In this document: piece after piece, positions 27,728 to 29,125 of the stretch | How the letters are laid out: the number at the start of each line of letters is the position of its first letter | Numbering within the stretch: the stretch's first letter is position 1 | Origin: Escherichia phage vB_EcoM-VpaE1 | Sequence record: KM657822 | Length of the DNA: 64,000 nt | Strand: one strand, 5' to 3' | The notes under the pieces: model-generated | Seen by the model: only the letters and a program-made list of their open reading frames with translations | Told to the model about the DNA's origin: nothing | Databases searched by the model: none | Program-made: the position numbers and the translations under genes

Positions 27728-27805
27728 GGGAGATTGACGGTAATTGGTAAACCTATCTCGCTTAGAACGAGATGTTTGAGGGTTCGAATCCCTTGTCTCC
27801 TACCA
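27728..27805 (+). tRNA. tRNA with TAG anticodon (Leu by anticodon; short variable arm)
   Basis: Anticodon stem tctcg/cgaga, loop ctTAGaa; T-loop GGTTCGAATCC; CCA. Confidence 0.6.
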
Positions 27806-27812
27806 AATTAAT

Positions 27813-27888
27813 GCAGGTGTAGCAAAATGGTTATGCGGCTGACTCTTAATCAGTAAGACGATGGGTTCAATTCCCTCCACCTGTACCA
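27813..27888 (+). tRNA. tRNA-Lys (CTT)
   Basis: Paralog of Lys(TTT); anticodon loop ctCTTaa; CCA. Confidence 0.65.
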
Positions 27889-27894
27889 GATATT

Positions 27895-27970
27895 GGGGTC
27901 ATAGTTTATATGGTTAAAATTCGAGTTTTGCAAACTTGGGAACTGAGTTCAATTCTCAGTGACTCCACCA
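27895..27970 (+). tRNA. tRNA-Ala (TGC)
   Basis: Anticodon stem cgagt/acttg, loop ttTGCaa; CCA. Confidence 0.7.
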
Positions 27971-27976
27971 ATTAGT

Positions 27977-28051
27977 GCATCCATAGTTTAAACGGGAAAA
28001 TTACAGTCTTCCAAACTGAGGTTGAGGGTTCGATTCCCTCTGGATGCTCCA
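27977..28051 (+). tRNA. tRNA-Gly (TCC)
   Basis: Anticodon loop ctTCCaa; T-loop GGTTCGATTCC; CCA. Confidence 0.65.
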
Positions 28052-28057
28052 AATAAT

Positions 28058-28134
28058 GCTGCTTTCGTATAATTGGCTATTACACATCCCTTGTAAGGAT
28101 GGAAATGCAGGTTCGAGTCCTGTGAGCAGCACCA
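28058..28134 (+). tRNA. tRNA-Thr (TGT)
   Basis: Anticodon stem catcc/ggatg, loop ctTGTaa; CCA. Confidence 0.7.
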
Positions 28135-28229
28135 ATTCAGAGGTCAAGTGAAAGACCGCTGGTGTCAACTGAAGACCGTAACAAATTCCACGGAGTTGAG
28201 TTAGCGGCACAACTTCAGACCTCTTTCAT

Positions 28230-28304
28230 ACTCGCTTAGTTTATATGGTAAAACATCACCCTTACAAGATGAAGAAAAAGGTTCAAGTCCTTTAGTGAGT
28301 ACCA
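28230..28304 (+). tRNA. tRNA-Val (TAC)
   Basis: Anticodon loop ctTACaa; T-arm aaagg-ttcaagt-ccttt; CCA. Confidence 0.65.
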
Positions 28305-28305
28305 T

Positions 28306-28383
28306 GTTCCAGTATCCCAATTGGCAGAGGATGCAAGCTCAAACCTTGTACTAGTGACGGTTCGAATCCGTCTTGGAACACCA
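28306..28383 (+). tRNA. tRNA with CAA anticodon (Leu by anticodon; short variable arm)
   Basis: Anticodon stem gcaag/cttgt, loop ctCAAac; T-arm gacgg-ttcgaat-ccgtc; CCA. Confidence 0.6.
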
Positions 28384-28402
28384 ATTTTGAGAGGCTATTT
28401 AG

Positions 28403-28960
28403 ATGAGATATTTGAAGTATGCTTCATGGATTTTCCTAGCTTTACTAGAACCATTTGCAGCAACCCTAGCAGTCATCTTAGCACCTTTCGTAGTTCCATT
28501 CTACAGTGAGAAGAAAGGACATCTACCTTTTGGATTCAGATGGATGGAGACCTATGACAACCCAATTGATGGTGATGAAGGCCACGTTAAAAGATGGGCT
28601 AAGATTAGAAAGATTGGTAAGCTGGGTGTCTACATGCAGAGAGTTGGATGGCTCTGGAGAAACAAAGCTTATAACTTCTCTTACCATGTATTAGGAAGAG
28701 ATGTAAAAGATGTTACTAAGTGGAAAGGTAATATCAACGTAAGTTCTAACCCTGAAGATAATCAGACTGGTTATCTCCTAATGTGGAACAGTAATGCTTG
28801 GGGATTATTCGCTTTTATCCCATCAATTAAAGTCTTTGGTAAACAGTTTTACTGGAGAATTTATGTTGGGTGGAAACTTAAAAGTGTTGTCCCAGAAGAA
28901 AGAGCATTCTCAAGGGAAAGAGTTATGTTGGCATTCTTTATTCATCCACTGAGAAAGTAA
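28403..28960 (+). CDS. hypothetical membrane protein encoded inside tRNA cluster
   Basis: 185-aa ORF with N-terminal hydrophobic segment, Trp-rich; no tRNA overlap. Confidence 0.5.
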   Translation: MRYLKYASWIFLALLEPFAATLAVILAPFVVPFYSEKKGHLPFGFRWMETYDNPIDGDEGHVKRWAKIRKIGKLGVYMQRVGWLWRNKAYNFSYHVLGRDVKDVTKWKGNINVSSNPEDNQTGYLLMWNSNAWGLFAFIPSIKVFGKQFYWRIYVGWKLKSVVPEERAFSRERVMLAFFIHPLRK

Positions 28961-28968
28961 AGATTTAA

Positions 28969-29044
28969 AGGGGATTAGTTTACAAGGTTAAAACCTCGGT
29001 CTTTGAAATCGAAGAAGTTGGTTCAATTCCAACATCCCCCGCCA
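28969..29044 (+). tRNA. tRNA-Gln (TTG)
   Basis: Anticodon loop ctTTGaa; unpaired 1-72 (A/C); CCA. Confidence 0.65.
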
Positions 29045-29046
29045 AT

Positions 29047-29125
29047 GCTCCATTACTCCAATTGGCAGAGAGGCCAGACTTAAAATCTGTGTTATGTATC
29101 GGTTCGAATCCGATATGGAGTACCA
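29047..29125 (+). tRNA. tRNA with TAA anticodon (Leu by anticodon; short variable arm)
   Basis: Anticodon loop ctTAAaa; T-arm atcgg-ttcgaat-ccgat; CCA. Confidence 0.6.

Follow-up and report, generated by a model that had tools for sequence, protein, structure and literature searches.

Three leucine tRNA genes with a short variable loop in the tRNA cluster of a Felixounavirus

In the textbook view, bacterial tRNA-Leu always carries a long variable arm. The tRNA genes of Escherichia phage vB_EcoM-VpaE1 (KM657822), studied here in a stretch of 64,000 nucleotides that we call the window, appear to break this rule. A first-pass annotation reported three tRNAs with leucine anticodons, each 78-79 nucleotides long and devoid of the arm, together with serine and tyrosine tRNAs that keep theirs, and it proposed two ways out: either the tRNAs have another identity than their anticodons suggest, or they are noncanonical leucine tRNAs. 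Which of the two holds, and what would charge such tRNAs with their amino acid?

The window belongs to a Felixounavirus and contains 25 tRNA genes, all on the + strand, with small ORFs interspersed (ARAGORN, Rfam). The three leucine genes lie inside the tRNA cluster at 25483..30320 (+), whose gene order is identical in the annotations of phages Michonne, Si3 and Sf14. The gene for tRNA-Leu(UAG) is at 27728..27805 (+, 78 nt, Rfam score 44.5 bits, also seen in alignments), that for tRNA-Leu(CAA) at 28306..28383 (+, 78 nt, 43.6 bits), and that for tRNA-Leu(UAA) at 29047..29125 (+, 79 nt, 47.5 bits, also seen in an alignment); these lengths include the encoded CCA, present in all three, and the gathering score of the Rfam tRNA model is 29. 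The setting is that of an ordinary tRNA operon. The positions, lengths and leucine anticodons given by ARAGORN are those of the first-pass annotation, and Rfam agrees; the software could have assigned other anticodon loops, and it returned the same ones.

In the ARAGORN predictions, each gene forms a four-arm cloverleaf with an acceptor stem of 7 bp, a D stem of 3 bp closed by a large D loop, an anticodon stem of 5-6 bp and a T stem of 5 bp. The anticodon loops have seven nucleotides: CU-UAG-AA, CU-CAA-AC and CU-UAA-AA. Assuming an anticodon stem of 5 bp, the variable regions are the unpaired segments UGUUU (5 nt) in the UAG gene, ACUAGU (6 nt) in the CAA gene and GUUAUGU (7 nt) in the UAA gene: a stemless region within the range of about 4-7 nt of type I tRNA-Leu, where a canonical bacterial type II tRNA-Leu has a stem-loop of more than 10 nt. 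All three have A73. The UAG gene has the D loop AAUUGGUAAA, U13, and a D arm that is irregular, with an additional nucleotide after U8, before the D stem, and a C.U mismatch. The other two are paralogues, both with A9 and C13, and their D arms read UCC-C-AAUUGGCAGA-GGA for CAA and CUC-C-AAUUGGCAGA-GAG for UAA. Minimum free energy folds have z-scores between -1.4 and -1.6, and only Leu(UAG) folds into a cloverleaf; such folds are weak evidence by themselves, and we consequently rely on ARAGORN, Rfam and covariation.

The same cluster provides long-armed genes for comparison: tRNA-Ser(UGA) at 27382..27471 (+, 90 nt), tRNA-Ser(GCU) at 30148..30240 (+, 93 nt) and tRNA-Tyr(GUA) at 25984..26071 (+, 88 nt), all predicted by ARAGORN. 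Each one folds with an extra hairpin, of 7 bp in the case of Ser(UGA), which bears out the second part of the annotation. The leucine genes leuZ, leuW and leuX of E. coli K-12 have 87, 85 and 85 nt, and their alignment with the phage genes opens a gap of 8-10 nt exactly at the variable arm. This gap is the sole large difference. The positions A14, A15, U16, G18, G19, U48 and A73 are invariant in the alignment, and the Leu-type D arm of leuZ, leuW and leuX is retained, with the A15-U48 pair and a correctly placed G18G19. More generally, these three genes and the tRNA-Leu(UAG) of phage T5 share with the phage genes A73, A14, A15-U48, the anticodons, the encoded CCA, the D-loop motif AAUUGGYARA and a D stem of 3 bp, and differ from them by a stemmed variable arm of more than 10 nt.

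The bodies of the three tRNAs thus have A73, U8-A14, G18G19 in the leucine register and a 15-48 pair. They do not resemble tRNA-Ala or tRNA-Ser: their 3:70 pairs are G-C, U-A and U-A, with no G3:U70, and the long arm is missing. Among viral tRNAs, the D-arm signature goes with a leucine anticodon in 240 of 247 cases (97% specific); when the anticodon is masked, 20-26 of the 30 nearest neighbours are leucine tRNAs. The full E. coli identity set, U48 and A73 included, is found in 118-121 of 122 viral cases. The published tRNAscan-SE isotype models for Shigella phage Sf14 also place leucine on top for all three of its genes, with scores of 67.4, 49.1 and 60.2, although for Leu(UAG) the runners-up Ile2 (65.7) and Lys (63.4) come close to 67.4 (PMC12482277). 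The CAA and TAA genes of Sf14 each differ by one base from those of the window; its Leu(UAG), however, is a different sequence and no orthologue, so that its isotype score cannot be applied to the UAG gene of the window. Judged from these sequence features, the three tRNAs are most plausibly true leucine tRNAs of type I in which the arm alone is missing. [quoted passage not shown]

The meaning of the codons was assessed by aligning proteins. Against the proteins of phage phiEa21-4, codons TTA, TTG and CTA align with leucine at frequencies of 0.58, 0.46 and 0.57, the other leucine codons at 0.55-0.62. Against 70 distant terminase homologues, the values are 0.51, 0.40 and 0.55, compared with 0.048 for non-leucine codons. 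By these alignments UUA, UUG and CUA mean leucine in phage proteins; since the host tRNAs read the same codons, such tests reveal the meaning of a codon and not the cargo of the phage tRNA. The phage is AT-rich. Of the leucine codons in the window, 27% are TTA and 11% CTA; in an E. coli sample the shares are 13% and 3%. UUA and CUA are 2-3 times more frequent among leucine codons in the phage than in E. coli, and these over-used codons correspond to two of the three conserved anticodons, UAA and UAG.

Are the genes maintained? The tRNA region of the window is contained in 256 phage records, and the leucine genes hardly vary in sequence from one record to another, over more than 250 phage records. 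Their conservation extends from phages of Salmonella and E. coli to Erwinia phage phiEa21-4, with all stem changes fully compensated: Leu(CAA), for example, is one base away from its orthologues in Sf14 and Michonne, and shows compensatory changes with respect to phiEa21-4. A blastn search of 5,426 E. coli genomes found no close copy of the Leu(UAA) gene. Short-armed tRNA-Leu is conserved across the Ounavirinae and is also present in T5-like coliphages: phage HdH2 has Leu(tag) and Leu(taa) genes of 77 nt. At the syntenic site, within one genus, T5 has a type II Leu(tag) of 85 nt and HdH2 a type I gene. The idea that the arm of a T5-type gene was simply and recently deleted was rejected, the stems of the two Leu(tag) genes being different throughout.

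In a scan of viral contigs, short-armed genes represent about 12% of the Leu-type tRNA matches. The 85 unique short-armed sequences form 72 clusters at 85% identity and come from many unrelated phage groups. Over these 85 sequences, 94% of the stem cells are paired, a share that drops to 39-48% once the partner column is displaced, and most variable stem positions display four to six types of pairs. The core of the class is remodelled as well, at A9 and C13-G22: A9 is found in 64 of 108 sequences and C13 in 67 of 108, whereas viral type II tRNA-Leu (n = 112) have G9 in all cases and a purine at position 13, with C13 in 0 of 112. The genes of the window do not have the type II combination of G9 and purine 13, given the A9 and C13 of the CAA and UAA genes and the U13 of the UAG gene. 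Many phages harbour type I and type II leucine tRNAs side by side, and the serine and tyrosine tRNAs of phages bearing short-armed tRNA-Leu are long-armed.

Mitochondria and Streptomyces coelicolor were already known to have type I tRNALeu, and the trait is no quirk of this phage. In animal mitochondria, tRNALeu(UUR) is type I and is recognised through A73 and A14 with no long arm (PMC9976931), as the phage tRNAs may be; it differs from them in being organellar, with a dedicated LeuRS, a floppy structure rich in mismatches, and an unrelated context and sequence. The tRNALeu(CAA) of S. coelicolor is the one bacterial exception studied biochemically, and was called rare (Fan et al., NAR 2019, PMC6614811). 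It combines a leucine anticodon with an unpaired short variable loop, here of 5 nt, and coexists in one cell with long-armed tRNA-Leu; it must have a nucleotide 48 and a loop no shorter than 5 nt, and U8-A14 is one of its identity elements (PMC6614811). Unlike the phage genes, it is chromosomal, and the LeuRS that charges it has a leucine-specific domain adapted to type I substrates (PMC6614811); it has C48, and A73 is not an identity element, whereas the phage tRNAs have the U48 and A73 of the E. coli set, and all three phage isoacceptors are type I, not so in S. coelicolor. In our genome scan, at least 120 bacterial species have short-armed genes for tRNA-Leu; many chromosomes of Actinomycetota are among the carriers, with no phage context there, and related actinomycete genes share the D arm CCCAAUUGGCAGAGG of the window. 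The premise of the annotation, that bacterial tRNA-Leu is type II, is a textbook generalisation that has exceptions, in S. coelicolor (PMC6614811) and in the species found by the scan.

Which enzyme would charge these tRNAs? The window encodes no LeuRS homologue, and LeuRS-like matches from Escherichia or Salmonella phages make up 9 of 74 phage records, with none among the 25 matches listed. A phage-encoded LeuRS was rejected as a candidate, having no match in the window and almost none among the records of enterobacterial phages. For the E. coli enzyme, the elements described as crucial are A73, A15-U48, G18G19 and A20a; the sequence and fold of the arm are uncorrelated with leucylation, and armless variants of E. 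coli tRNALeu are still active (review PMC9976931). Armless tRNALeu of Aquifex is also charged, mainly with a lower affinity (PMC2377443). [quoted passage not shown] These engineered variants are laboratory constructs with reduced affinity, whereas those of the phage occur naturally, are conserved and have a re-optimised core.

A different experiment points the other way: E. coli LeuRS was unable to leucylate the type I tRNALeu(CAA) of S. coelicolor, and it is described as charging type II tRNALeu only, with a leucine-specific domain that favours large variable loops (PMC6614811). That substrate, however, has C48 where the E. coli enzyme requires U48 (PMC6614811), so that what was seen with it may not hold for the phage tRNAs. 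That the trait is so common in phages comes as a moderate surprise, since the sole natural short-armed tRNALeu tried on the E. coli enzyme was not charged. Given this failure, and with no LeuRS in the window, charging by the host is something that we infer. The anatomy of the tRNAs, their conservation and covariation, their set of identity elements and the leucine meaning of the codons are shown; expression of the genes, and any selective reason for the loss of the arm, are inferred.

With these elements in hand, the explanation that we favour, with a probability of roughly 0.7, is that the three genes encode functional type I leucine tRNAs, most likely charged by the LeuRS of the host, that decode CUA, UUG and UUA. 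The cluster would be transcribed, yielding tRNA-Leu bodies with a loop of 5-7 nt in place of the long arm; the Escherichia or Salmonella LeuRS would read A73, U8-A14, A15-U48 and the position that G18G19 occupy in the Leu-type D loop, the arm being dispensable, and the leucine-charged tRNAs would then serve the three codons. The irregular D arm of Leu(UAG) and the failure on the S. coelicolor tRNA count against this explanation.

Bacterial TyrRS contacts the variable arm of its tRNA. [quoted passage not shown] Consequently, the arm could be lost from the leucine tRNAs only, and this use by SerRS and TyrRS would explain why the serine and tyrosine tRNAs retain it.

Other explanations have to be weighed against this one. 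It is scarcely credible that the genes are decaying pseudogenes whose arm was deleted. In favour of it, several tRNAs of the cluster are flagged as pseudo or OTHER in relatives, by tRNAscan-SE and by annotators, and the leucine genes, at 43.6-47.5 bits, are among the lower scorers of the cluster. Yet a pseudogene loses stem complementarity and conservation, and both are present here, in the near-identity of so many records, the compensated stems with respect to phiEa21-4, and, for the class, the 94% pairing with coordinated changes at A9 and C13-G22; moreover, every leucine gene of the phage, three out of three, is short-armed. Nearly as improbable is that the tRNAs carry another amino acid than leucine and recode CUA, UUG and UUA, as the type I architecture might suggest despite the anticodons, along with the close Ile2 and Lys scores of the Sf14 Leu(UAG) gene (PMC12482277). 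The A73 and the Leu-type D arm speak against it, and so does the behaviour of the three codons as leucine codons against distant homologues. Apart from LeuRS, SerRS and AlaRS, the synthetases as a rule recognise the anticodon, which in this case is a leucine one; AlaRS would need the absent G3:U70 and SerRS the absent long arm.

The two remaining proposals concern what happens in the infected cell. We think it quite unlikely that the host LeuRS charges these tRNAs poorly or not at all, leaving them to act as decoys for tRNA-binding enzymes or regulators, or dependent on a phage factor. The failure of E. coli LeuRS on the S. coelicolor tRNA, its type II-only description and its preference for large loops (PMC6614811) favour this proposal, as do the absence of a LeuRS in the window and the nine enterobacterial records with LeuRS-like matches, against 256 with the tRNA region. 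Strong covariation of the acceptor and anticodon stems, conserved anticodons of which UAA and UAG fit over-used codons, an identity set kept in nearly all viral cases, the charging of engineered armless E. coli tRNALeu (review PMC9976931), and the encoded CCA in an ordinary operon all argue against it. Somewhat less doubtful, but still unlikely, is the proposal that loss of the arm is adaptive and not neutral streamlining, type I tRNA-Leu, still active in translation, escaping whatever recognises host type II tRNA-Leu by the long arm; candidates are a defence nuclease or toxin that targets tRNAs, or a phage-induced depletion of host tRNAs, and the proposal would add to the favoured explanation. 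It draws on the recurrence of the trait in unrelated phages (72 clusters for 85 sequences), on two unrelated coliphage families that are short-armed though leuZ, leuW and leuX of K-12 are long, on the lack of a close Leu(UAA) copy in the E. coli genomes searched, and on the T5 and HdH2 genes that differ in type at the same site. Evasion of anticodon nucleases is known for phage tRNAs, and type II tRNAs are the target of SLFN11 in mammals; Schlafen nucleases also take part in bacterial defence (PMC13056530). On the other hand, our search turned up no bacterial nuclease with specificity for tRNA-Leu or for the variable arm. The one bacterial Schlafen that has been characterised cuts tRNA-Lys, Met, Ala and others in their anticodon arm and does not single out type II tRNAs (PMC13056530): bacterial Schlafen was thus discarded as a type II-specific nuclease, and offers an analogy at most. 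Retention of the serine and tyrosine arms in the same phages is what synthetase constraint alone would produce, and both the coexistence of the two types of leucine tRNA in many phages and the chromosomal type I genes of Actinomycetota weigh against adaptation.

The literature search found no paper on short-armed tRNA-Leu in phages, and here a classic lineage of Salmonella and E. coli phages has its entire set of leucine tRNAs short-armed. For annotation, the consequence is that a short phage tRNA with a leucine anticodon should not be dismissed as a pseudogene. Phage type I tRNA-Leu form a natural and diverse panel of substrates with which to study the requirements of LeuRS, and the short-armed set offers a concrete test of the idea that structural differences between phage and host tRNAs serve defence evasion or insulation. 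We regard as speculative, and improbable as things stand, the idea that a core-remodelled type I tRNA-Leu was adopted repeatedly by phages for its functional insulation from the host: it would either go unseen by an arm-recognising activity, of the host or triggered by the phage, or be charged or edited differently by LeuRS. If true, such insulation would provide a dedicated viral channel for UUA, UUG and CUA in hosts whose LeuRS was thought to accept type II tRNAs only.

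Three tRNA genes with leucine anticodons are placed by ARAGORN on the plus strand: tRNA-Leu(tag) at 27728-27805 and tRNA-Leu(caa) at 28306-28383, both of 78 nt, and tRNA-Leu(taa) at 29047-29125, of 79 nt, an encoded CCA included. Their variable regions, of 5, 6 and 7 nt respectively, are stemless, and their cloverleaves are otherwise regular. These are the short genes that the first-pass annotation had described, at the same positions and with the same anticodon loops. Its claim that the serine and tyrosine tRNAs of the cluster are long-armed also holds: Ser(tga), Ser(gct) and Tyr(gta) measure 90, 93 and 88 nt, with an extra hairpin retained in all three. 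The E. coli K-12 genes leuZ, leuW and leuX are 87, 85 and 85 nt long, and an alignment of the six leucine genes separates the two groups by a gap of 8-10 nt at the arm. Leu(UAG), at 27728-27805, carries one additional nucleotide after U8, ahead of the D stem, and the base of that stem has a C.U mismatch; the Rfam match of this gene begins one base late, at 27729.

Two interpretations of these genes had been offered: noncanonical leucine tRNAs, or an identity different from that of the anticodon. D arm, A73, U48, isotype models and codon alignments speak for the former and against the latter. In the alignment, A14, A15, U16, G18, G19, U48 (the nucleotide preceding the T stem) and A73 are invariant across the six genes, and the phage D arms have the architecture of tRNA-Leu, with a 3-bp stem and the loop AAUUGG(C/U)A(G/A)A. 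E. coli leucyl-tRNA synthetase (LeuRS) depends on A73, A15-U48, G18G19 and A20a (2023 review, PMC9976931). The pair G3:U70, looked for in the three phage cloverleaves, is absent from all. Outside the arm, everything in these genes reads as leucine-like.

For Shigella phage Sf14, a close relative, the isotype models of tRNAscan-SE, the check proposed in the first-pass annotation, rank Leu at the top for Leu_TAG (67.4), Leu_CAA (49.1) and Leu_TAA (60.2) (PMC12482277); its CAA and TAA genes are each 1 base apart from ours, and its TAG gene is a different sequence. Since this TAG gene differs, we used as a stand-in the D-arm signature at Leu spacing among 1,695 ARAGORN predictions of viral tRNAs: of the 247 that carry it, 240 have a Leu anticodon. 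With anticodons masked, 20 (TAG), 26 (CAA) and 26 (TAA) of the 30 tRNAs nearest to each gene are leucine tRNAs. Outside leucine, the signature occurs only in one tRNA-Gln (viral locus L049:7068-7144) and six viral tRNA-Glu(UUC) that carry the AAUUGGUA(G/A)A D-loop motif at Leu spacing (loci L029:3150-3226, L045:8320-8399, L055:3543-3622, L075:4547-4626, L113:2330-2409 and L226:2442-2518).

The codons themselves were compared in two ways. In 32 pairs of proteins that Erwinia phage phiEa21-4 has in common with this phage, at a mean identity of 50%, TTA, TTG and CTA align with leucine at 0.58, 0.46 and 0.57, against 0.55-0.62 for the other Leu codons and 0.01 for Lys or Ser codons; this comparison is not independent, as phiEa21-4 has these tRNAs too. 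The test was therefore redone with the large terminase and 70 homologues at 40-46% identity, and gave 0.51 for TTA, 0.40 for TTG and 0.55 for CTA, versus 0.048 for non-Leu codons. Judged by these alignments, the three codons mean leucine in this phage. Compared with a small E. coli sample, TTA makes up 27% versus 13% of leucine codons, and CTA 11% versus 3%; two of the three tRNAs thus fit codons favoured by the phage.

The cluster holds 25 tRNA genes by ARAGORN, all on the plus strand between 25483 and 30320, 23 of which are also recovered by the Rfam tRNA model. The segment 27300-29500 has matches in 256 phage records, among them Escherichia phage finno (98.1% identity) and Salmonella phage Felix O1 (97.7%); because of these identities we assign the phage to Felixounavirus (Ounavirinae). 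Directly upstream, at 23902-25317 (+), a 471-aa ORF with DUF2828 and DUF7788 is labelled RNA-binding protein in relatives and keeps its position in Michonne, Si3 and Sf14; a connection of this putative protein to tRNA handling is conceivable. Inside the cluster lie two ORFs with strong Pfam matches, DUF7338 at 28403-28960 (+), 185 aa, a putative membrane protein in relatives, and DUF7217 at 29412-30146 (+), 244 aa.

Short leucine genes occur all through Ounavirinae: Michonne, Si3, Sf14 and phiEa21-4. Those of phiEa21-4 (caa, aag and taa, 77-78 nt) differ from ours in stem sequences, with complementarity kept. In Mooglevirus (Sf14, Michonne), the Leu(UAG) slot holds, at the same cluster position, a different and regular sequence; the slot was therefore replaced at some point within Ounavirinae. 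Compared with 28306-29125, Salmonella phage Si3 has a chimeric tRNA-Leu (L002:4001-4079), whose 5' part is like Leu(CAA) and whose 3' part, from the D loop onward, is like Leu(UAA). It lacks the roughly 740 bp between the two paralogues, including the DUF7338 ORF and tRNA-Gln(ttg), and 6 of the 7 positions of its hybrid acceptor stem still pair. The chimera looks like the product of recombination inside the common D-loop sequence CCAATTGGCAGAG.

Beyond this subfamily, we scanned IMG/VR with a pattern that combines the Leu D-loop motif and a T arm with a NAR anticodon placed at Leu spacing. At least 120 contigs matched with short spacing. With open spacing, the 120 contigs listed comprise 14 short and 106 long, with modes at variable regions of 5 and 13 nt, a short fraction of roughly 12% among matches listed that is valid for this motif only. 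Phe anticodons were permitted, and 121 of the 122 short matches listed have Leu anticodons; A73 is present in 118 and U48 in 121, as in the long set. At the same loci, 94 of 95 Ser tRNAs are at least 80 nt and all Tyr tRNAs at least 79 nt, their long arms kept. The short genes with 5-nt loops are diverse (85 unique sequences, 72 clusters at 85% identity, median pairwise identity 59%). In the short set covariation is strong: 94% of stem cells are paired, a share that falls to 39-48% when partners are shifted, and 4-6 pair types occur at most of the variable stem positions.

The core of these tRNAs differs as well. A9 is found in 64 of 108 short genes, where all 112 long ones have G9; C13, always accompanied by a D-loop G, in 67 of 108 short genes and in none of the 112 long; and G46 in 43 of 85 short genes. 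A9, C13 and G46 are features typical of type I tRNAs, and the CAA and UAA genes studied here have A9 and C13. The loss of the arm is accompanied by an altered core.

A composite query of diverse short leucine tRNAs matched 702 cultured-phage records, one of them verified (HdH2). T5-like phages of Salmonella and Escherichia are among them, as are phages infecting Mycobacterium, Streptomyces, Gordonia, Pseudomonas, Vibrio, Lactobacillus and other hosts. In the T5-like coliphage vB_EcoS_HdH2, Leu(tag) and Leu(taa) are both 77 nt (L358:10853-10929 and L358:5999-6075); T5 has an 85-nt Leu(tag) adjoining tRNA-Ala. The Tequintavirus Leu(UAG) beside tRNA-Ala is thus type II in T5 (L007:11625-11709) and type I in HdH2. 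In T arm and 3' acceptor strand (GAGGGTTCGAATCCCTTGTC), the HdH2 Leu(UAG) gene is nearly identical to ours, which suggests that tRNA genes are exchanged between unrelated coliphages.

The short pattern also matches at least 120 bacterial species, as a solitary chromosomal tRNA in 92 of the 120 loci listed (L234-L353) and, at other loci, in tRNA arrays. Most solitary genes are a conserved 74-nt tRNA-Leu(UAA) of Actinomycetota (GCCCCCATAGCCCAATTGGCAGAGGCAGCGGACTTAAAATCCGC..AGTGTCGGTTCGAGTCCGACTGGGGGCA; e.g. L240 Mycobacterium sp. and L253 Nocardia sp.), found in Nocardia, Mycobacterium, Gordonia, Rhodococcus, Arthrobacter and Rothia; in Bifidobacterium the version present is CAA. In the searchable literature on bacterial type I tRNA-Leu, only the S. 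coelicolor CAA gene is described. Some 8-kb bacterial loci hold dense tRNA clusters, similar to those of phages, with several short tRNA-Leu: Asanoa iriomotensis (L241, 17 tRNAs) and an Acidobacteriota MAG (L243, 25), whose listed Ser and Tyr tRNAs are long, a Leptolyngbyaceae (L274, 10) and Moorena bouillonii (L305, two pattern matches).

How would such tRNAs be charged? A tblastn search of the window with E. coli LeuRS gave no match, and the phage apparently has no LeuRS of its own; LeuRS-like matches occur in 74 phage records, only 9 of them from Escherichia or Salmonella phages. We infer that the enterobacterial host charges them. Against this counts the failure of E. coli LeuRS to charge the type I tRNALeu(CAA) of Streptomyces, the enzyme being termed type II-only, with a leucine-specific domain that prefers large variable loops (Fan et al., NAR 2019, PMC6614811). 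However, that negative result may not be transferable, because the Streptomyces substrate has C48, while E. coli LeuRS requires A15-U48 and the phage tRNAs have U48. In E. coli, leucylation is uncorrelated with the sequence or fold of the arm, and armless variants are still active (PMC9976931); in Aquifex, the main effect of removing the arm is a lower affinity, and deleting U48 abolishes charging (PMC2377443). The loss of the arm could be neutral, allowed by LeuRS; it could also serve to evade a factor that recognises type II tRNA-Leu.

The genes themselves have long been annotated as tRNA-Leu, and the type I kind is known from mitochondria and Streptomyces; in bacteria it has been described as rare, and Fan et al. 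leave phages unmentioned. In the Felix O1 genome paper the tRNAs are listed with no remark on their structure, and a literature search on short-armed tRNA-Leu in phages found nothing. What is apparently undescribed is that type I tRNA-Leu is widespread in phages, two coliphage families among them, that it has a core signature of its own, and that the hosts in which it occurs have a LeuRS that failed on the sole natural type I substrate tried.
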